A stretch of DNA of 64,000 bases from Escherichia coli (GTDB lineage Bacteria; Pseudomonadota; Gammaproteobacteria; Enterobacterales; Enterobacteriaceae). How positions within the stretch are numbered: the stretch's first letter is position 1; every line of letters begins with the position of its first letter. The DNA is taken from assembly GCF_001677475.2 (NCBI RefSeq), contig NZ_CP015229.1, one strand, 5' to 3'. Both the position numbers and the translations under genes were made by a program. Under the pieces are notes generated by a model, which worked only from the letters and a program-made list of their open reading frames with translations, searched no databases and was not told the DNA's origin. Shown piece by piece: positions 11,163 to 37,495 of the stretch.

Positions 11163-11597
11163 ATGCGACAAATCATCGACACCCTCGCGCAGTTACAGCG
11201 CCTGCGGGATAAATCGGTCAAGGACAAAACCGTCGAGCTGGCAAAACAGAAACAGATTTGCGCGGGCTATGACAACAATATCAAAGCATTAGGTTACCTG
11301 GTGGAGAAAACCTCTGCGGGCGCGGCGGCATCGGTGGAATCGCTGAAAAACGTCAGCGGCTACAAAGGCACCCTGCGCAAGGTGATCGCCTGGCAAGAGC
11401 AGGAAAAAACGCTGGCTAACATCAAAGCCACGCGAATGCAGAAAAACCTGACGGCGGCGGCCTGCGAAGAGAAAGTGGTGGCTTTGACGCTGGACGACAA
11501 ACGCCGCGAGCAACAAGAAAGCGCCACGGCGAAAGCGCAGAAAGCGGTGGACGATATCGCCGTGCAGTGCTGGTTGCGGCACAAATTAGCGGAGTAG
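11163..11597 (+). CDS. lfiJ: Flagellar export chaperone FliJ homolog
   Basis: 144 aa coiled-coil protein after fliI homolog. Confidence 0.7.
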   Translation: MRQIIDTLAQLQRLRDKSVKDKTVELAKQKQICAGYDNNIKALGYLVEKTSAGAAASVESLKNVSGYKGTLRKVIAWQEQEKTLANIKATRMQKNLTAAACEEKVVALTLDDKRREQQESATAKAQKAVDDIAVQCWLRHKLAE

Positions 11598-11599
11598 CC

Positions 11600-11995
11600 A
11601 TGAAAACGGTCATCACCTTCGGCACCTTCGATGTGTTTCATGTCGGTCATCTGCGCCTTTTACAACGCGCCCGCGCATTGGGCGAGCGGCTGCTGGTCGG
11701 CGTGTCGTCAGACGCCCTGAACATCGCCAAAAAGGGCAGAGCGCCGGTTTACCATCAGGATGAACGCATGGCGATTATCGCCGGGCTGGCGTGTGTGGAT
11801 GGCGTATTTCTTGAGGAATCGCTGGAGCAAAAAGCAGAGTATTTGCGGGGGTACAGTGCGGATATTTTGGTGATGGGTGATGACTGGGCAGGGAAGTTTG
11901 ACAGCTTTGCGTATATTTGTGAGGTGGTGTATTTCCCCCGCACGCCATCGGTGTCGACGACGGGGATTATTGATGTGATTAGGGCGCTTTTATAA
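11600..11995 (+). CDS. Cytidylyltransferase-like protein (glycerol-3-phosphate cytidylyltransferase TagD-like)
   Basis: GTFDVFHVGH (HxGH nucleotidyltransferase motif); ~131 aa; RBS ggag before ATG at 11600. Confidence 0.7.
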   Translation: MKTVITFGTFDVFHVGHLRLLQRARALGERLLVGVSSDALNIAKKGRAPVYHQDERMAIIAGLACVDGVFLEESLEQKAEYLRGYSADILVMGDDWAGKFDSFAYICEVVYFPRTPSVSTTGIIDVIRALL

Positions 11996-12113: not shown

Positions 12114-14558
12114 TTACCCCAACGCCTCCACAATCACCATTGCCGCCCGTTCCCCCGCCTTGCCATCCATAAACGCGTCGCAATAGTGATGGCGAATCTC
12201 CGCCAGCTTCGCCTGCAACGCCTTCCAGTCAAACGCCTCTGACAGCAGATAACGCAGTTCCGCCATATCGTGAGCGACGGGTAATATCGCGCGGATTCGC
12301 TGATCGGCGCTTTCAGGCGTGGAGTAGCTTTGCTCGCCATCGAGCAGTTCCGTCATGCCCGAAAAGTCGAGCAGGATCACCCGCTTATCAACGTGGATAG
12401 CATCGAAAATAAAGCCGCTGTTATCGGTGAGCACGTAATCGGCCTTTGCCAGTAGCGCCAGCGTGTGACGGGCGGAGTCGGTGCGCTGTTTTAAATGTCT
12501 GCGCGCCAGGGCCAGCGACGCCGCTTCTTCCGGGCGCGCGCAGGTGCCGTGGTGCAGTTTGCAAATCAGGTTCACATCACCGCTTAAGCGCCCCAATTTT
12601 TCTGCCCAGTGGGGCAGGGAGCTTAATGTGCCAAACGTGGGGGCGTAGAGCACCGTAGTTTTACGAAAATCGGGTTGGATATTTTCCGGCAACGAACGAT
12701 CGAAAGTGCCGTTATGCCAGGTGTCGAAGCGCGGGTTGCCAACCACTTTTGCATTGCCGAAATGTTCCAGCGCCTGCTGGCTGTAGTGGCTGTAACACAA
12801 AATGCGCTGATAAAAACGGTTCCAGTCGGCATGGTTCCACGTCTCTTTGGCTAAGCCGTACATGGCGCGGATGTTCACGGGGGAAAGGCCATTGAGCGCA
12901 GGCGTGTGGTAGGGGCTGACCAGGCATTTCACCCGCTGACCGTGTGCCTGCATTTCAGATAAGCGCATACCTTTAAGCTGCGGATCGACGATACTTTTTA
13001 GCGTCGCCAGCATTTCATCAAGAAACGGTTTAAACACGCGGTCGTTGATCACCAGCGTGCAACTCTGCCCCTGCGCCTGTAGGGATGTGATGATGGGGCG
13101 GTACAGCGCGTAGTGAAAGGAGGTTTCCATAAAAAAGCCGATGGTGTCGGCGATGGGTAACGCGGATGGCGTTGTGGCTACGGGCAATTTATTGAAAAAG
13201 TGACTAATATTATCAGTCACTTTTTGCTCGATATCACTAAAGCCCGGTCGCTGGTAACAAAGGCTCGGATAACAGGCCAGCCATTTGTCGGCGCGTAGCA
13301 GCGACTGCCAACACTCTTCAAGTGAGTGCTCATCGTTGCTCATCTGCTGCGCCAGTTGCGGGTAGTAGCGGCTGTTCACCAGATAAGCGCACACTTTGCG
13401 GCAGTCCCGCGCGTGCACCAGCCCCGGCAAACTTTTTAGCATCGTTCCCTGCGAAATTTCGCCGCCAAGGATCATCACCTGCCAGGGAATTTTCGCCAGG
13501 CTGGCCAGCAGAGTGTTCAGCACCTGAATATGTTTCTCCTGCTTGAGAATGACCGCGTCATCTTCCAGTAAAAGGTAGTTTTGCCAGCCCTGCCGTTGCG
13601 CCAGGCGCAGCGCCTGCAAGTGTGACTGCTGGCGGCCCCGTTGACCGTTTTCATCTTCGCAGGCGGCAAGGCGGGTGATCTTCTCAGGCGGAATATGCAG
13701 CAAAGCCAGTTCTTCACGGATCTGTTGTAAGCGATCCGGGCGTTTATCCAGATTCAGCAGAACGATCTGATCGATCACCTGATGGTTGATCGCCTGATGA
13801 TGAGTGGCGTTATGCAGACTCAGATAAGCATTGCGGAGCAGCGGATCGCGGACGATATCCGTAAGCGTCGCGTTTACTGGCGTGCTGGCCCCGAGAATAA
13901 AGTCTTTATCAAAGGTGTTGTGGCTGTGCGAGATACACAGAATCGTGCGCTCACCGGGCAGTTGTAGCGGGTTAACGCTGAAGTTATCGGTGAAACTTTT
14001 CTCTTCACCTAAATTGCAATCGTCATCGTAGCGGTGCTTTTTCAGGTAGTTACGGTGATAGCAAAAGGTGCCGTTGAGGATGTTATGCGAGCCAAAGCAG
14101 CGGCTTTTGAAAATGCGGTTGATATGGCTGTACCAGATGGGGATCTGGTCGGAACCGGAGATGAGCGCCCGGTGTTTTTGCATCATGGCGATGGTGTACG
14201 AGATTTTATCTGCCGGGTAGTAGTCGTCATCGTCCATGCAGAGGATGTATTCGCCGCGCGCCAGTTCGTTGAGCATATTACGTTTTTTGCCCAGCGGCAG
14301 TTTTTCCGGGTGATGGATGTAGCGGATATTGAAGGACTCCGGCTTGCCATTGGTCAGGCGGTCGATGATGTGTTGATGGCTTTGCGGGGAGTCGTCGAGG
14401 ATGACCAGTTCGCGGCGGTCTGCCGGGTAGTCCTGATAGCGGTACATATAGAGCAGGTACAGCAGGAATGCGCCGCGATTCCAGGTTGGCGTGACGACGC
14501 TGACAAATGGTTTTTCGCGGTGGGTGGCGAGTGTTTTGATGATGGTTGGTGTTGGCAT
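12114..14558 (-). CDS. Multidomain glycosyltransferase (GT2-like N-term, GT25-like middle, CDP-glycerol glycerophosphotransferase TagF-like C-term)
   Basis: DDDDYY (DxD) near N-term; LLEDDAV middle; VLYAPTFG (TagF-family LYAPTWR-like) C-term; start set to internal ATG 14556-14558 because upstream extension reads into a GC-rich repeat. Confidence 0.7.
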   Translation of the reverse strand: MPTPTIIKTLATHREKPFVSVVTPTWNRGAFLLYLLYMYRYQDYPADRRELVILDDSPQSHQHIIDRLTNGKPESFNIRYIHHPEKLPLGKKRNMLNELARGEYILCMDDDDYYPADKISYTIAMMQKHRALISGSDQIPIWYSHINRIFKSRCFGSHNILNGTFCYHRNYLKKHRYDDDCNLGEEKSFTDNFSVNPLQLPGERTILCISHSHNTFDKDFILGASTPVNATLTDIVRDPLLRNAYLSLHNATHHQAINHQVIDQIVLLNLDKRPDRLQQIREELALLHIPPEKITRLAACEDENGQRGRQQSHLQALRLAQRQGWQNYLLLEDDAVILKQEKHIQVLNTLLASLAKIPWQVMILGGEISQGTMLKSLPGLVHARDCRKVCAYLVNSRYYPQLAQQMSNDEHSLEECWQSLLRADKWLACYPSLCYQRPGFSDIEQKVTDNISHFFNKLPVATTPSALPIADTIGFFMETSFHYALYRPIITSLQAQGQSCTLVINDRVFKPFLDEMLATLKSIVDPQLKGMRLSEMQAHGQRVKCLVSPYHTPALNGLSPVNIRAMYGLAKETWNHADWNRFYQRILCYSHYSQQALEHFGNAKVVGNPRFDTWHNGTFDRSLPENIQPDFRKTTVLYAPTFGTLSSLPHWAEKLGRLSGDVNLICKLHHGTCARPEEAASLALARRHLKQRTDSARHTLALLAKADYVLTDNSGFIFDAIHVDKRVILLDFSGMTELLDGEQSYSTPESADQRIRAILPVAHDMAELRYLLSEAFDWKALQAKLAEIRHHYCDAFMDGKAGERAAMVIVEALG

Positions 14559-14596
14559 GGTGTTTGGGTGAGTTAAGGGGTGAATGTGATGAATGT

Positions 14597-14725
14597 GCGC
14601 GCTGATGCCCTCACCCCGACCCTCTCCCACAGGGAGAGGGAGAGAACCAGCGCCGATTTTAATACCGTGCTCGATCGGTTCCCTCGCCCCTTTGGGGAGA
14701 GGGTTAGGGTGAGGGGCAAAGCGCG
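14597..14725. repeat. GC-rich ~130-bp nested-palindrome intergenic repeat, copy 1 (boxC/RSA-type)
   Basis: ccctcaccc...ccctctcccacagggagaggg...cccctcgcccctttggggagagggttagggtgaggg; near-identical copies at ~21948 and ~24236. Confidence 0.8.
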
Positions 14726-14736
14726 CACAGAGCGAC

Positions 14737-15705
14737 TCACGTCAGCAGCGAAAACGCTGAAAGCAGCGGCTCTGCCGCACATAACGACTGAATTTGCTGG
14801 CGAATAAACAGCGCATTTTCACTGGTCCGCCAGCGTTCAAACATGGCGAAGAGGGCGAAAATATCCTCCTTCCGCAGCGGAGAACCATCCAGCGTCCATA
14901 AACTGATTAACGTGCGGATAAGATAAAAATCGCACACCAGCGGGAAATAATCCGCCCCGTCTGCCTGCCCGATCGCATCGTGGTAAACGCGGTAGATCAG
15001 GTAATTACGCAAAATCCAGGGTGAAGTGGTGAAATGCTGCTGCCAGGTAGTTTGCCACTGCGCCTGAAGCTGCTGATGTAACAGGGCTTCGCTGTTGGCG
15101 TCATGCAATGTCAGTAAAGAAACCTGCAACGGCAGCGAGGCTTTGCGCGGGCTTTCCGGCAGAATCGACCAGTCAAACGCAAAACTTCCGAGCAGCGTCA
15201 CCAGCTGGCGTGCCAGCTGTGGCACAGGTGGCAACTGGGCGAACTGTGCCTGTAGCGTACCTTTTCGCGCATGGTCGGCCAGCGCCTGCGGCAGCGTCGT
15301 CAAACGGGCCAGAGTATCGCCATTCTTGCCCGGCATTTTACTGGCGCGGGAGAGCAGGATACCGACGGCATACAGTGACAATTCCGGGGTTAAATCGGCG
15401 AGCGTAAGGGTGCTCAAAATGACCTGGTTTAATATCACATCGCGTGCGGAAAGCTCACTGGCACTCTCTTCCATAGACCGATAGGTGAGCTGTAATTCAA
15501 ACGCACTGGCGTCGTTGAGCACCGCTTCGCAGCTTTCTGGCTCTGTAAGCATCAGACTCAGGCGAATTTCATTTTTCCATACCTTGCGGACATACAAAGG
15601 CGAACCAGGATGTTGTGCAATAAATTTGCGCACAAATTCAGGTTCGTAACATTCAATAAAACTCATAGGAGGCTTCCAGTCTTTAATGCTGAACAGGAAT
15701 TGCAA
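14737..15705 (-). CDS. Hypothetical protein, Flag-2-associated
   Basis: 322-aa ORF co-oriented downstream of lfgN; no motif recognised by eye. Confidence 0.5.
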   Translation of the reverse strand: MQFLFSIKDWKPPMSFIECYEPEFVRKFIAQHPGSPLYVRKVWKNEIRLSLMLTEPESCEAVLNDASAFELQLTYRSMEESASELSARDVILNQVILSTLTLADLTPELSLYAVGILLSRASKMPGKNGDTLARLTTLPQALADHARKGTLQAQFAQLPPVPQLARQLVTLLGSFAFDWSILPESPRKASLPLQVSLLTLHDANSEALLHQQLQAQWQTTWQQHFTTSPWILRNYLIYRVYHDAIGQADGADYFPLVCDFYLIRTLISLWTLDGSPLRKEDIFALFAMFERWRTSENALFIRQQIQSLCAAEPLLSAFSLLT

Positions 15706-15793
15706 TTACCGTGCCGGAAAATTTTTTAATATAAAACAAAGAATTGTTTTTCAGGCGGAAAATCCATTTCCGCTATGGGGGAAGGAATGGTCA

Positions 15794-16222
15794 TTATTCC
15801 TGATAAATAAAATCCGCTTCGCTGCCTAAAAAAGACTGAATAAATTCATACTGACGAATCAACAATTCACCGTTTTTATCGTTATACGCCTTACAGCGTT
15901 CGGCTTTTTGTTCAAGTCGTTGCCACAAGCGTTGTGCCGCCTCTTTTTGTACGGCGGGTAACCAGTTAAAAATCTGCTCTAAACCTTCCCGATTGACACT
16001 GACGCCGAGAAATTTCAGCAGGCTGTGGCGTTGTTGGCTGTGGCTGTTTAACTGATCGTAGTGATGCATTATCTCATCATTCACCGCCAGTAATTCCTCA
16101 CTCGCGCGGCGAATCATGCAGATCCGCTGACGATGGAGAAGTTCGCGCAGGGAATCGTAAAGCGCGTCATCGTCACGAATTCCCTGCAACAACGCCTTCA
16201 CCTGTTGTAACCGGATACTCAC
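15794..16222 (-). CDS. lfgN: Flagellar chaperone FlgN-like protein
   Basis: 142 aa, position after flgM homolog. Confidence 0.65.
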   Translation of the reverse strand: MSIRLQQVKALLQGIRDDDALYDSLRELLHRQRICMIRRASEELLAVNDEIMHHYDQLNSHSQQRHSLLKFLGVSVNREGLEQIFNWLPAVQKEAAQRLWQRLEQKAERCKAYNDKNGELLIRQYEFIQSFLGSEADFIYQE

Positions 16223-16234
16223 TTCATCGGCCTC

Positions 16235-16513
16235 TTAGTTCTGGAAAAAACTCAGCATGTCGCTGGCTAACTGTTCGGTGTCCACTTGCAGGCTGCCGGA
16301 GGCCAGCATCGCCTGCATTTGCTCCACTTTGTCGCTGTCGATATCGCTCTCTTGCTGGTCGTTCAGCGTTTGCTGGGCAGACTGCAATCCCGCCTGGGTA
16401 ATGTCGTCGGCGCTTAGCGTCGTGGTGGTGGTCGCTGTGCTTTTACGCGGCTGGCTGGAGCCTGCCGTTGTGGCTGTCGGGCGATTGCCTGGCATAGTCG
16501 GGGTGATTTTCAT
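16235..16513 (-). CDS. lfgM: Anti-sigma-28 factor FlgM homolog
   Basis: 92 aa, Ser/Thr-rich N-term, FlgM-like C-terminal helices. Confidence 0.7.
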   Translation of the reverse strand: MKITPTMPGNRPTATTAGSSQPRKSTATTTTTLSADDITQAGLQSAQQTLNDQQESDIDSDKVEQMQAMLASGSLQVDTEQLASDMLSFFQN

Positions 16514-16593: not shown

Positions 16594-17331
16594 TTACTCC
16601 GCGCCTACCGTCGTCACCACGCCGCTTTCCGCCACCATCGCGCTGATGACCCGCTGGCTGCTGGCGTTACGTACTTTCACCATCTCGCCTTTGCGACCAT
16701 TTTTCAGCGCCACGCCGGGCATCGAGGCGGTGATCCCCGCGTTCTGGAAAACAATCATCACCGGCTGATCGCGCTCGACCAGCACCGGAGACACCAGTTC
16801 TTCTTTGGTAAGCGGCCTGCCTGGTTGCAGCGCGTGCTTACTGCTTAAACCAATCGCGTCATCGAGCTCCATCAACACATCGCGACGCTGGGCGCTGACG
16901 TTGTAGGGCTTCAGCTCCACATCATTCGCGGTGAGAGGCGTATCGCGGGCAATCAGTGACTTCGCCATCACCACCGGCACCAGAACATCCGGGCGCACCG
17001 CCACGTTCATCTGCCAGCTTTGCGGGCAACTGACGGTGAAGTTCATGCGGTTGAGGGCGATTTCCGCAGGCGATGTCAGCGTGACGCCGGGTGTTGTAAT
17101 ACAGGGCGCGGCGGTCGCAATCTGCGACGGAATATAGACCTTAAAGGTGTAGCGATAGTCATGCCATTGCCGCTGTTGCGCCAGCGATTCAATTTCCTGG
17201 CTCGCGGCATTCAGCACCTGGGCGTTGACTTGTTCCCGCGCGCTGTGTTGCACGGGGTGGACGGCGGCGTAGCCCGGTAAGGCCAGCACCAGGAGGAAGA
17301 ACAACTTCCGCCTGCAAAATTGAAAACTCAT
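16594..17331 (-). CDS. lfgA: Flagellar basal-body P-ring formation protein FlgA homolog
   Basis: 245 aa with signal peptide; divergent from flgB homolog. Confidence 0.75.
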   Translation of the reverse strand: MSFQFCRRKLFFLLVLALPGYAAVHPVQHSAREQVNAQVLNAASQEIESLAQQRQWHDYRYTFKVYIPSQIATAAPCITTPGVTLTSPAEIALNRMNFTVSCPQSWQMNVAVRPDVLVPVVMAKSLIARDTPLTANDVELKPYNVSAQRRDVLMELDDAIGLSSKHALQPGRPLTKEELVSPVLVERDQPVMIVFQNAGITASMPGVALKNGRKGEMVKVRNASSQRVISAMVAESGVVTTVGAE

Positions 17332-26764: not shown

Positions 26765-27742
26765 ATGCAGGTCGGACTTACATCTTCATCACTCGCCACC
26801 GGCGGGGCGCATAGCGCTGCGGTATCGTCGTCAACCGTTGCGCCCACTCAGGCGGTGCGGCAAAAGCTCCCGGCGACGGCGAGTGAATATCCGGCCTCGC
26901 CGCTGATTACCACTCGCCCGCAGCGTTACAGCGTGCAGCTTAACGATCAGCTCACCACGTTGCAGCAGGCGGATCACTATCTCGGGCAACTGGAGCAGCA
27001 GTTGCTCGATTACCGTCACAGCCAGCGTAAGGGCGGGCAGGCGCAGAGTACGGCGCTGATGCAGATGCTGGACAAACGCACCGCGCTTTCCGGCGGTGCG
27101 GTGGACCGTCAGTTGCAGCCGGTGTTGCAGGGGGAAGCGCGGGTGACCTTTCACTCGCCGGATCTGGCGAGTCTGGTGCACAACCCCACGCCGGGAACGC
27201 GGATGTTCAGTGTCTCTGACGGGCGGCAGACCCAGCTTTCGGCGGTGATGCTGTCTGAGGATGACAGCGCTGGGCAGTACCAGACGCGGCTGACCAACGC
27301 CCTGCGCCGCGTGGGCGTGCAACTGCATCAGCAAGCGGACGGCATCAGCTTCTCCACCACTGAAAAACAGTGGCCCCATATCGAGCGCACCTTAAGCGTG
27401 CGCACCGATGGTGATAAGTCGGCGTTTATGCCGCTAAAAACCTTTGCCGAACCATCACAGGCGGACCGCTTTGCGCAAAGCCTGCAACAGGGTGGGGCGG
27501 GGATTTCCCAGACGTTAGAAGGCATTAATCAGCAGCGCGCGCAGATGGCGGTGCAGCAGGAAAAAGCCCGCCAGTTGATCGACGGCATGTCACGCTTCCC
27601 GCAAACGGAAAACGCGGTGCAGGCATCGGAGAACCTTGGCGGCGTGCTGGATAGCGCCAATCATAACTATCATGTTTTATTGCAGGCGGTGAACGGTCAG
27701 GCGCGAATTTCCAGCCAGACGGTGAGGAATTTATTGGGGTAA
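26765..27742 (+). CDS. lafW: Lateral flagellar protein LafW-like, function unknown
   Basis: 325 aa, Gln-rich; position after flgL homolog. Confidence 0.5.
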   Translation: MQVGLTSSSLATGGAHSAAVSSSTVAPTQAVRQKLPATASEYPASPLITTRPQRYSVQLNDQLTTLQQADHYLGQLEQQLLDYRHSQRKGGQAQSTALMQMLDKRTALSGGAVDRQLQPVLQGEARVTFHSPDLASLVHNPTPGTRMFSVSDGRQTQLSAVMLSEDDSAGQYQTRLTNALRRVGVQLHQQADGISFSTTEKQWPHIERTLSVRTDGDKSAFMPLKTFAEPSQADRFAQSLQQGGAGISQTLEGINQQRAQMAVQQEKARQLIDGMSRFPQTENAVQASENLGGVLDSANHNYHVLLQAVNGQARISSQTVRNLLG

Positions 27743-27800: not shown

Positions 27801-28643
27801 TCAGCATTTCTGCACAGTATTTAACAACTTCTCTAAATTCTGATACATCGCGCTATTAATATCGCTGTTCTGCCACTCATCCACATTAAAGGTTAATTGC
27901 CAGCTGCCGTTGCACTGGTTACGCAGAACAATATCGCTTTCCAGTCGGTTACGAACATATTTATAATAGGTTGTCATTGTCATATTATGCGCTGACAATA
28001 AATTATCGAGTTTGTCTTTTCCTGGTGCAAGGGTTTGTGAAAGTAACGGTGCGGAGTTATTTTCTTTTCCAGAACTAAGATGAAATATTTTTATTCTTGG
28101 ACTGTTAATTGACTCTTTTACCAGTTGCGGGGCGTCAGGTGTATTTTTCAAGTGTGAATATCCCACGGTCGAGCCAATAAATATAACAGCTGCGGCTAAC
28201 GCTACCCCCATTATTCCTTTATGTTTTTTTCTAACAGGCACAGGCGGTGTTGTCGAAGATATCTCTTCTGGCACAGTTCCCTGTATCTGGTCGGTAATAA
28301 TCATCGCTTCTGCAGGCGATGACTCCGGCAAAGACACATACTCTTTATTGCACAAGTAACCTTTCTTCGGAATTGTTTTAATAATGTTCTGTTGTTTGCC
28401 ATCATCGTCGATAGCAACCCGCAACGCATGGATCGCCGTCGGCAGGCTGTTTCCGCCGACAATGCGGTTCTTCCATACTTCGGCACATAAATAAGATCGC
28501 GATAAAACCACATCGGCATTTTTTGCTAATGTTTCCAGCAAAATAAAATGGTATTCGCCGAGACGACGTGTTTCACCCGTTTCGCAATGTATTAAGGCAT
28601 TAAGCGACGGGTCCATCCGCCAGTTGTTGATAATAATACTCAT
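27801..28643 (-). CDS. lafZ: ToxR/CadC-like membrane-anchored transcriptional regulator (winged-helix DNA-binding domain + single TM)
   Basis: OmpR/PhoB-type wHTH-like N-term, TM segment GVALAAAVIFIGSTVGY; start set to internal ATG (MSIIINNW...). Confidence 0.6.
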   Translation of the reverse strand: MSIIINNWRMDPSLNALIHCETGETRRLGEYHFILLETLAKNADVVLSRSYLCAEVWKNRIVGGNSLPTAIHALRVAIDDDGKQQNIIKTIPKKGYLCNKEYVSLPESSPAEAMIITDQIQGTVPEEISSTTPPVPVRKKHKGIMGVALAAAVIFIGSTVGYSHLKNTPDAPQLVKESINSPRIKIFHLSSGKENNSAPLLSQTLAPGKDKLDNLLSAHNMTMTTYYKYVRNRLESDIVLRNQCNGSWQLTFNVDEWQNSDINSAMYQNLEKLLNTVQKC

Positions 28644-29128
28644 AGTTGAGTTTACCTTAGCAAGGGATAAATGTTTCCTGATAGTGCTTTGCATAAAGCA
28701 CAGTCTTATACGTCCCTGAGAAGATGATTTTTCTGCGTGATAATTAATATTTTATGGTAATAGGATTATTCTTAATCACTATATGGCGTGGAAATGTAAC
28801 GAAATGACAGGATAGGTACAATAGCCAAATGTGTACTATTTGCAACGCAATGTAAATTTTGGCATCAGTACATTGAGAAGAAAACGCGTTAATTGATGGT
28901 AATCTTAACTATATCAAGCGTTTGATAAAGACATATTTTGATACCTGGCCATGTGGCAGATATTGCTAATAATCTTTTTATCTGAATTTAAACTCTGCTT
29001 TCTTTTAGCTAAAAGTGGCATCGGATAATACGTAGCGAATTTTTTTCATAGCGGTTTTAAGTTTGCTCCCGAGGTGTCGTTTTTACAGGGTATCGAAACG
29101 AAAACGATTAATCCCAAGGAGCAGTATC

Positions 29129-30043
29129 ATGTTATCTATTAACACCAATAACGCCTCAATGGCCGCCGTTAATGCAATCAGCAAAAGCAGCTCTTCTCTG
29201 TCTACATCTATGGAACGCCTGGCAACGGGTAACCGGATTAACTCTTCAGCAGATGATGCGGCGGGCAAACAGATTGCTAACCGTTTAACTGCACAGTCCA
29301 GCGGTATGGGCGTGGCGCTGAGCAACATTAACGATGCCACCGCGATGCTGCAAACCGCTGACAGCATGTTCGACGAAATGTCTGACGTGCTGGGGCGTAT
29401 GAAAGACCTGTCAACTCAGGCAGCGAACGGCACCTACAGCGACGACGACCTGCAGGCGATGCAGGACGAATACGACGAACTGGGTCAGCAGATGTCTGAC
29501 ATGCTGCAAAACACCACCTACGGCGGCACCAACCTGTTCGGTGTTTCCGGCACCAGCAACACCGGTACTGACGGCTTGTTCCAGAGCGCGGTAACTTTCC
29601 AGGTGGGCGCGGAATCTTCTGACACCATGACCGTGAATATTTCAAGCCAACTGAATACGCTGGTGACTGACCTTTCTGCGATCAGCAACTCCTTTAGCGC
29701 GGATCAGGCAGACACCACGGGTACTGCGGGCGTTTCTGGCGGTACTGAACTGACCGCGTCTGGCTCGGCTAACCAGATGATCACCAGCATTTCTACCGCG
29801 ATGGATGATGTTTCTCAGATCCAGTCCAAGCTGGGTGCGTCTATCAACCGTCTGAACGATACCGCCAACAACCTGACCAGTATGCAGGACAACACCGAAG
29901 TCGCTATCGGTAACATTATGGATACCGACTACGCGACGGAAGCGTCCAACATGACCAAACAGCAGGTGCTGATGCAGACCGGCATCACCATGCTGAAACA
30001 GTCCAACAGCATGTCCAGCATGGTTTCCAGCCTGCTGCAGTAA
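29129..30043 (+). CDS. lafA: Lateral flagellin LafA
   Basis: Flagellin N-term (NTNNASMAAVNAISKSSSSL) and C-term (LMQTGITMLKQSNSMSSMVSSLLQ); RBS aagga before ATG 29129. Confidence 0.9.
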   Translation: MLSINTNNASMAAVNAISKSSSSLSTSMERLATGNRINSSADDAAGKQIANRLTAQSSGMGVALSNINDATAMLQTADSMFDEMSDVLGRMKDLSTQAANGTYSDDDLQAMQDEYDELGQQMSDMLQNTTYGGTNLFGVSGTSNTGTDGLFQSAVTFQVGAESSDTMTVNISSQLNTLVTDLSAISNSFSADQADTTGTAGVSGGTELTASGSANQMITSISTAMDDVSQIQSKLGASINRLNDTANNLTSMQDNTEVAIGNIMDTDYATEASNMTKQQVLMQTGITMLKQSNSMSSMVSSLLQ

Positions 30044-36439: not shown

Positions 36440-37495
36440 ATGCGTAAAATCATTCATGTGGATATGGACTGCTTTTTCGCCGCGGTGGAGATGCGCGACA
36501 ATCCCGCCCTGCGCGATATCCCTATTGCTATTGGCGGCAGCCGCGAACGTCGGGGGGTGATCAGCACCGCCAATTATCCTGCGCGTAAATTTGGCGTACG
36601 TAGCGCTATGCCGACAGGGATGGCGCTCAAATTATGCCCACATCTCACCTTGCTTCCGGGGCGCTTTGACGCCTACAAAGAAGCCTCAAATCATATCCGT
36701 GAAATCTTCTCGCGCTACACCTCGCGCATTGAACCGTTGTCACTGGATGAAGCCTATCTCGATGTCACCGATAGCGTCCATTGCCACGGTTCTGCGACCC
36801 TCATCGCCCAGGAAATCCGCCAGACGATCTTCAACGAGCTGCAACTGACGGCGTCTGCGGGCGTGGCACCAGTAAAGTTTCTCGCCAAAATCGCCTCCGA
36901 CATGAATAAACCCAACGGCCAGTTTGTGATTACGCCGGCAGAAGTTCCGGCATTTTTACAAACCTTGCCGCTGGCAAAAATTCCCGGCGTCGGCAAAGTC
37001 TCGGCGGCAAAACTGGAAGCGATGGGGCTACGGACCTGCGGTGATGTGCAAAAGTGTGATCTGGTGATTCTGCTTAAACGCTTTGGCAAATTTGGCCGCA
37101 TTTTGTGGGAGCGTAGTCAGGGGATTGACGAGCGCGACGTTAACAGTGAACGGTTGCGAAAATCCGTCGGCGTGGAACGCACGATGGCGGAAGATATTCA
37201 TCACTGGTCTGAATGTGAAGCGATTATCGAGCGGCTGTATCCTGAACTTGAACGCCGTCTGGCAAAGGTAAAACCTGATTTACTGATTGCCCGCCAGGGG
37301 GTGAAATTAAAGTTCGATGATTTTCAGCAAACCACTCAGGAGCATGTCTGGCCGCGGCTGAATAAAGCTGACTTAATCGCCACCGCGCGTAAAACCTGGG
37401 ATGAACGCCGTGGCGGGCGCGGTGTGCGTCTGGTGGGGCTGCATGTGACGTTGCTTGACCCGCATATGGAAAGACAACTGGTGCTGGGATTATGA
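36440..37495 (+). CDS. dinB: DNA polymerase IV
   Basis: [23 protein letters not shown]-family polymerase N-terminus. Confidence 0.95.

Follow-up and report, generated by a model that had tools for sequence, protein, structure and literature searches.

The gene lafV lies on the minus strand at positions 14737..15666 of the window (the whole 64,000-nucleotide stretch of Escherichia coli DNA analyzed here) and encodes a protein of 309 aa plus stop, made up of a FliB_C body only, with no Cys cluster. It is the lafV gene of variable region VR1 of the Flag-2 locus and is already catalogued as such. The original prediction had been of a 322-aa protein at 14737-15705; an ORF of that extent exists on the minus strand when it is read from a TTG codon, and the actual CDS within it is the shorter one. 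Neither the predicted length nor the strand that the prediction implied is correct. The start was placed at the ATG at 15666 (309 aa) because the 19 aligned homologues all begin at an internal Met ('MS.IECYEPEFVR') and the E. coli 042 orthologue is likewise 309 aa in its RefSeq annotation. No homologue reaches upstream of this Met, and the in-frame TTG-started extension (15667..15705, minus strand) is, to judge from the alignment, probably not translated. A candidate Shine-Dalgarno-like GGAAG (15673..15677, minus strand), read off the sequence, lies 6 nt upstream of the ATG. Scans around lafV gave no match for a sigma-70 promoter and no convincing match for a terminator. A 7-bp hairpin (GCGGAAA-ATCCA-TTTCCGC, window 15755-15773) is found between lfgN and lafV, 20 nt past the lfgN stop codon as read on the minus strand; it was unflagged by the terminator scan and could modulate read-through into lafV. 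lafV is a real gene rather than a chance ORF. A database search with its protein returned ~98 homologue clusters at E ≤ 1e-3, at least 80% of the 1401-nt lafV region was found in 1,276 of 5,426 complete E. coli genomes, and the exact window protein is also present in E. coli and cryptic Escherichia records, where it is named lysine-N-methylase.

Upstream of lafV, on the same strand, are lfgA (P-ring chaperone FlgA, 16594..17331; TIGR03170, 1e-35), lfgM (anti-sigma factor FlgM, 16235..16513; TIGR03824, 2e-13, above cutoff) and, immediately before lafV, lfgN (FlgN-type chaperone, 15794..16222; PF05130, 1.9e-18). Downstream is the conserved lafV neighbour, a gene for an 814-aa multidomain GT2 glycosyltransferase (12114..14558, minus strand; Pfam GT2, 2.3e-18), and the predicted co-oriented order, downstream of lfgA-lfgM-lfgN and before a glycosyltransferase, thus holds on the minus strand. 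The glycosyltransferase has an N-terminal GT2 domain, a conserved middle and a weak C-terminal region resembling CDP-glycerol glycerophosphotransferases (Glyphos_transf, 0.0076, below cutoff); its start was placed at 'MPTPTIIK' from the 042 annotation and the conserved N-termini. A tagD-like glycerol-3-phosphate cytidylyltransferase gene follows on the plus strand (11600..11995; TIGR01518, 2.7e-33, below the equivalog cutoff; PF01467, 2.1e-19; start inferred from the 042 annotation), and its predicted product probably supplies CDP-glycerol. Beyond it lies lfiJ (11163-11597, plus strand), with lfiI, so that lafV stands between lfiJ and lfgN, the placement of VR1.

The spacer between lafV and the glycosyltransferase gene (14559..14736, 178 nt) contains two GC-rich palindromic REP-like units at about 14600-14730 (…CCCTCTCCC…GGGAGAGGG…), and a query containing these units had 25,123 matches in 5,071 of the 5,426 E. 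coli genomes. Counted up to the conserved glycosyltransferase start, this junction spans 17-57 nt in Citrobacter, Enterobacter, Phytobacter and Leminorella and 112-261 nt in Escherichia and Pseudocitrobacter, where it is longer because the REP-like insert is present.

LafV was described by De Maayer et al. 2020 (PMC6993521), who credited the name to earlier work, as VR1 cargo in 342 of 592 Flag-2 loci and as predicted FliB orthologues. In the supplement to that study, ten groups (LafV1-LafV10) average 228-318 aa, with no conserved-domain match, and all are therefore short forms. The window protein has 86% aa identity to LafV of E. coli 042, equal length, and the identical position between lfgN and the GT2 gene; its 309 aa fall within the about 300-318 aa of 042-like LafV, and no structural difference from the 042 protein or from the LafV1-LafV10 groups was found.

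LafV compared with the lysine-N-methylase FliB

The protein had been called unassigned and without recognizable motif, and neither description stands: it is annotated as a FliB-like lysine-N-methylase (NCBI; De Maayer et al. 2020), it has a sub-threshold match to the NCBIfam FliB profile, and its homologues carry the FliB_C domain (PF27117). The NCBIfam profile (NF038110) scored 48.4 bits and aligned over profile positions 105-363 of 373 only, below the cutoff of 85 bits and short of the full-length coverage that define the equivalog. A Pfam search of LafV gave no match with a Pfam set from which the PF27117 model was missing; FliB_C was assigned through the precomputed annotation of a cluster, drawn at 90% identity, to which the exact window protein belongs. 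Nearly all LafV homologues carry this domain, and many are named 'lysine-N-methylase' by NCBI. Matches of the LafV profile to long FliB proteins over ~260 residues confirm the homology, which with respect to Salmonella enterica FliB (NF038110) covers the first strand, the helix and the whole FliB_C body. LafV also resembles FliB in being encoded in a flagellar locus and in the NxxxYxxY motif, which is conserved in all three classes of the family (long, S1 and S0). It differs from FliB, besides its score below the family cutoff, in lacking a Cys-rich module of ~92 residues, and with it the CX4CX3CC motif and all 8 invariant Cys.

In Salmonella FliB this module holds an oxygen-sensitive [4Fe-4S] cluster at an N-terminal CX4CX3CC motif (C17, C22, C26, C27); the protein has 8 conserved cysteines, and the C17A/C22A/C26A/C27A mutant has neither cluster nor methylation activity (Wang et al. 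2021, PMC8598068). A profile made from the LafV alignment was searched against 1.84 billion representative proteins and yielded 155 relatives. The exact CX4CX3CC motif was found in 58/58 long forms (380-450 aa), at residues 14-23, and in 0/35 sequences of 285-330 aa, 3 of which appear to be N-terminally truncated long forms, leaving 32 genuine short forms; the motif is absent from window LafV as well. Eight Cys are invariant in the long forms (27/27 and 42/42 in joint alignments). Window LafV retains 0/8, with A17, G21, E42 and gaps in their place, and its own Cys (6, 46, 245 and 296) sit at other columns, only C6 being invariant in the close clade. The clade of the window protein (S0) keeps none of the FliB Cys. 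The distant short class (S1; P0107-P0180, loci L005 and L030-L032) has 4 invariant Cys, a CxCxxC at about residues 21-27 and a fourth at about residue 50, and 3 of the 4 align with FliB cluster or conserved Cys positions. Going by their alignment, the S1 Cys may be what is left of a metal site and may represent an intermediate step in evolution (8 to 4 to 0 Cys). The Cys-less P0128 nests within the S1 clade, which implies an independent Cys loss.

The ~92 residues are missing from LafV internally. LafV is not an N-terminal truncation, because the first strand and helix ('Y-x-P-x-F-V') are common to both forms. AF2 modelled window LafV with a pLDDT of 92.2 and a pTM of 0.91, and canonical FliB, a long form, with a pLDDT of 92.9. 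The two models have the same order of elements and agree in DSSP class at 86% of 306 aligned positions, and the long-form model has one added block, at residues ~15-108. Fold searches with both models against solved structures returned generic helical-bundle matches only, and LafV showed neither a Rossmann-like nor a SET fold. Structure prediction, which had been put forward as a check of the original prediction, thus delivered a confident, compact model, with only these generic matches among solved structures to place it.

The module of long FliB is of the YkgJ (CxxCxxCC, PF03692) type, to which residues 17-123 of canonical FliB have a weak PF03692 match; among the long forms, one bears the name 'YkgJ family cysteine cluster protein'. 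Window LafV differs from YkgJ in having neither the CxxCxxCC cluster nor a Pfam match to that family, and the real ORFs of the window contain none. The idea of a Cys-cluster partner encoded nearby was rejected, as six-frame matches to CX4CX3CC, CX2CX2CC and looser motifs in the 64-kb window fell in spurious frames only. No canonical fliB was found in the 5,426 complete E. coli genomes (blastn 'distant', sensitivity limited to about 65-70% DNA identity).

The 'lysine-N-methylase' annotation of LafV probably overreaches, and the name is spreading to many proteins of Escherichia, Citrobacter and their relatives in which the cofactor site needed by the characterized enzyme is missing. Naming within the short FliB_C family is inconsistent ('hypothetical protein', 'lateral flagellar associated protein', 'lysine-N-methylase'), and one member (P0116, Paramixta manurensis, L032 7001-7924) is named 'tRNA-ribosyltransferase' by NCBI. 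A literature search found neither the missing module nor the GT2 pairing of LafV described; other uses of 'LafV' were in the Flag-2 survey or for an unrelated Vibrio gene, and no experiment on LafV or on LafA modification was found for any enterobacterium. The module loss and the obligate GT2 pairing appear to be new here; the gene, its name and a putative function were already known.

Window LafV has Ile-Gly at I232-G233 (around nt 14968-14973), as do Escherichia-type proteins, where the family has Phe-Pro; the Pro occurs in at least 80% of sequences of all three classes, and the change is lineage-specific and lies within the most conserved motif, NYLxYRxYHDxFP. The best-scoring long FliB against the LafV profile, from Limnobaculum (P0124, L003 8001-9218; 405 aa, full Cys motif), is encoded outside a flagellar locus, flanked by an epmB-like radical-SAM gene with efp on one side and by groEL/groES on the other, and a non-flagellin substrate for this FliB-type enzyme is possible. 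A 2998-aa match (P0219) was a cadherin-repeat protein and was discarded as spurious.

Pairing of lafV with a GT2 glycosyltransferase gene

The co-oriented order lfgN, lafV, large GT2 gene was found in the window, in 042 and at 21 further loci from Escherichia, Pseudocitrobacter, at least 9 Citrobacter species, Enterobacter, Phytobacter and Leminorella, and the two genes were neighbours in all 22 loci scored from Escherichia to Leminorella; at one Citrobacter locus the glycosyltransferase is split into two genes, which still follow lafV. A GT2 gene directly adjoins the short-form gene in 28/29 loci, and in the 29th (Buttiauxella) it is 1.7 kb away, within the same island. At the S1 loci the gene order is reversed and the GT2 link is kept. 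Rouxiella has lfiJ, GT2 and LafV, with a 14-nt overlap; Pantoea allii has GT2 and LafV, then a GT25-like gene; Paramixta has GT2, LafV, TagD-like and TagB-like genes; and Pandoraea, a beta-proteobacterium, has GT2 and LafV (4-nt overlap), a second GT2 gene and then flagellin. In Buttiauxella, GT2, LtaS-like, TagB-like and TagD-like genes lie 1.7-5 kb downstream of the LafV gene.

Canonical FliB genes are placed otherwise, in the order fliC-fliB-fliA without a glycosyltransferase (L028, L029), whereas in the window 13 kb separate lafV from lafA and the GT2 gene is its direct neighbour. For Flag-1 loci, De Maayer and Cowan 2016 (PMC4875605) report that FliB islands (296 strains) and glycosylation islands exclude each other, with 2 strains as exceptions. 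Among Flag-2 loci, glycosyltransferases were counted in 341/592 and LafV in 342/592 (PMC6993521); these figures, which are totals and not per-strain counts, are consistent with near-complete co-occurrence of the two. The adjacency could also mean that two modification genes, each acting independently, were inherited together in one island.

A single 603-aa ORF from a metagenome (P0208, L027 391-2202) joins a Cys-less FliB_C, a PKD-like segment and a PM0188-type sialyltransferase. It was set aside as a Rosetta-stone fusion and kept as adjacency evidence only, being a singleton from a 2.2-kb contig covered about 3x, for which no second example turned up; it could be a frameshift merging two adjacent genes.

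The lateral flagellin LafA and the proposed role of LafV

The presumed substrate of the VR1 modification genes is the lateral flagellin LafA (304 aa, Flagellin_N and Flagellin_C), encoded by lafA at 29129..30043 on the plus strand. Just upstream of it, at the position of the second variable region (VR2), are a 325-aa ORF with no Pfam match (window 26765-27742, plus strand) and the adjoining gene for a 297-aa protein with a winged-helix Trans_reg_C domain (window 27801-28694, minus strand). A DinB-type (IMS family) translesion polymerase gene (window 36440-37495, plus strand) lies shortly past the last flagellar genes, apparently where the Flag-2 locus ends.

LafA has Lys only at residues 19, 47, 92, 234, 277 and 290, all in the terminal helical regions, and its central 80 residues contain no Lys, no Arg, 14 Ser and 13 Thr (34% Ser+Thr). 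Of the 24 Lys in the FliC encoded beside canonical FliB, 18 lie within the central 280 residues, and Salmonella FliC and FljB have up to 16 and 18 surface methylation sites, respectively (PMC7181671). By composition, the Lys-free centre of LafA would argue against FliB-style surface methylation, not decisively. A stronger claim, that it is near-decisive, was given up: Aeromonas caviae and Shewanella oneidensis have glycosylated flagellins with methylated lysines in the D1 region (PMC9290775), and most LafA proteins have 1-2 central Lys (0 in 35, 1 in 38 and 2 in 25 of 104 homologues).

We put forward, with confidence that is no better than even, that LafV is a FliB derivative without the Fe-S module that serves as partner of a flagellin glycosyltransferase, perhaps recognizing flagellin. 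LafV would be a FliB paralogue that kept the FliB_C body together with the first beta-strand and helix and lost the module that binds the catalytic [4Fe-4S] cluster; so reduced, LafV alone should be unable to carry out FliB-type Fe-S-dependent methyl transfer, and selection maintains it in a conserved pairing with the GT2 glycosyltransferase gene. LafV, the GT2 enzyme and the TagD-like supplier of CDP-glycerol would act in the cytoplasm before export of LafA, on which the target would be O-modification of the Ser/Thr-rich central segment. LafV would probably recognize or present flagellin, an ability handed down from FliB, and would leave the chemistry on LafA Ser/Thr to the GT2 enzyme, the TagB-like region and the TagD-like enzyme. 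The analysis shows the homology, the loss of the module, purifying selection, the synteny with GT2 and the composition of LafA; binding of flagellin by FliB_C, contact between LafV and the glycosyltransferase, and even the existence of a LafA glycan are inferred. The suggestion that the protein may be a flagellin-modification accessory factor is the part of the original prediction that the evidence here favours, and it survives the absence of LafV from other Flag-2 loci.

Substrate-targeting modules of flagellin glycosyltransferases include the TPR domain of Caulobacter FlmG and the Maf proteins. LafV would be like these in being a non-catalytic part that recognizes flagellin and hands it to a glycosyltransferase domain; it has no known sequence or fold kinship with them and would be a separate, methylase-derived polypeptide, so that the analogy is functional only. 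More speculatively, and in our view doubtful as it stands, the short FliB_C proteins as a whole (LafV and its CxCxxC relatives) could be unrecognized flagellin-targeting subunits of GT2 flagellin glycosyltransferases, pseudoenzymes derived from an Fe-S methylase by stepwise loss of the cluster (8, 4 and 0 Cys). Flagellin recognition would then have been kept and the name 'lysine-N-methylase' would be wrong. If LafV does act as glycosyltransferase partner, it would be the missing specificity component of flagellin glycosylation in enterobacterial lateral flagella, and the handling of flagellin by FliB would fall to its FliB_C body. As the gene itself is already known and E. coli frequently has a silent or defective Flag-2, the impact would be a specialist one.

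That LafV is instead a genuine lysine-N-methylase acting on LafA, with the chemistry residing in FliB_C or provided in trans by an Fe-S protein (e.g. of YkgJ type), we consider unlikely. The homology to FliB over about 260 residues, the name used by NCBI and De Maayer, and the NxxxYxxY motif conserved in all three classes fit a methylase, but LafV has none of the 8 invariant FliB Cys, replacing Cys by Ala inactivates FliB, the profile score is 48 bits against a curated NCBIfam cutoff of 85, and no Rossmann or SET fold was seen. The 4 invariant Cys of the distant short forms could still bind metal; no Cys-cluster ORF was found in the window, however, and no fliB in the E. coli genomes searched. 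Similarly, the 6 Lys of LafA lie in D0/D1, where such residues are methylated in other glycosylated flagellins, but the LafA centre has none, and canonical FliB is found apart from glycosyltransferases (2 exceptional strains) whereas LafV occurs with GT2 in its loci. A counterpoint is that the Fe-S requirement comes from one study, done with a fusion protein; its quadruple mutant may simply have failed to fold properly, and the SAM site might then reside in FliB_C.

We think it rather improbable that LafV is catalytic with a new activity on the glycan, transferring or tailoring a substituent on a sugar or on glycerol-phosphate. Its obligate linkage to GT2, TagD-like and TagB-like genes would suit such an activity, as would the invariant residues of the Cys-less clade, which include E33, R35, N80, Q81, R174, K175, D189, H229, E277 and R280, but there is no recognizable catalytic fold or cofactor motif. 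The neighbouring sugar genes, moreover, vary widely while LafV stays, and a protein-directed role therefore fits better than a sugar-specific one.

Very improbable is a flagellar assembly, export or regulatory factor independent of flagellin modification. lafV is co-oriented directly downstream of lfgA-lfgM-lfgN, and its family is alpha-helical without an enzymatic signature, but as VR1 cargo it is missing from 250/592 Flag-2 loci, and in Rouxiella, Pantoea, Paramixta and Pandoraea it follows the GT2 gene and not lfgN. The constant partner is accordingly the glycosyltransferase and not lfgN, as these four genera have LafV after GT2, and its presence in only 342/592 loci makes LafV accessory and not core. 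The 'unknown assembly component' of the original prediction finds no support in this distribution; absence from other Flag-2 loci, which had been named as what would refute that prediction, counts against a core assembly role and is compatible with a role in modification.

lafV is under purifying selection and is not decaying. Its dN/dS against E. coli 042 is 0.21 (0-0.16 for neighbouring flagellar and VR1 genes), and the median over 59 pairs is 0.155 (range 0.083-0.412). The gene is intact in 21/21 species-level loci, and in the close clade, whose sequences go down to about 41% identity, 55 columns are invariant, with polar or aromatic residues in many. A functionless, decaying fliB remnant, as might be read from the loss of the catalytic module and from a dN/dS somewhat above that of core flagellar genes, is effectively refuted by these selection data and sits poorly with the confident, compact AF2 model, and we find it barely credible.

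Window lafV is closer to the allele of Pseudocitrobacter faecalis (94% aa, dS 0.16) than to that of E. coli 042 (86% aa, dS 0.34). On the flank, lfiJ matches its 042 counterpart at 100% identity and lfiI at 98%, and together these values suggest that VR1 alleles move between genera.
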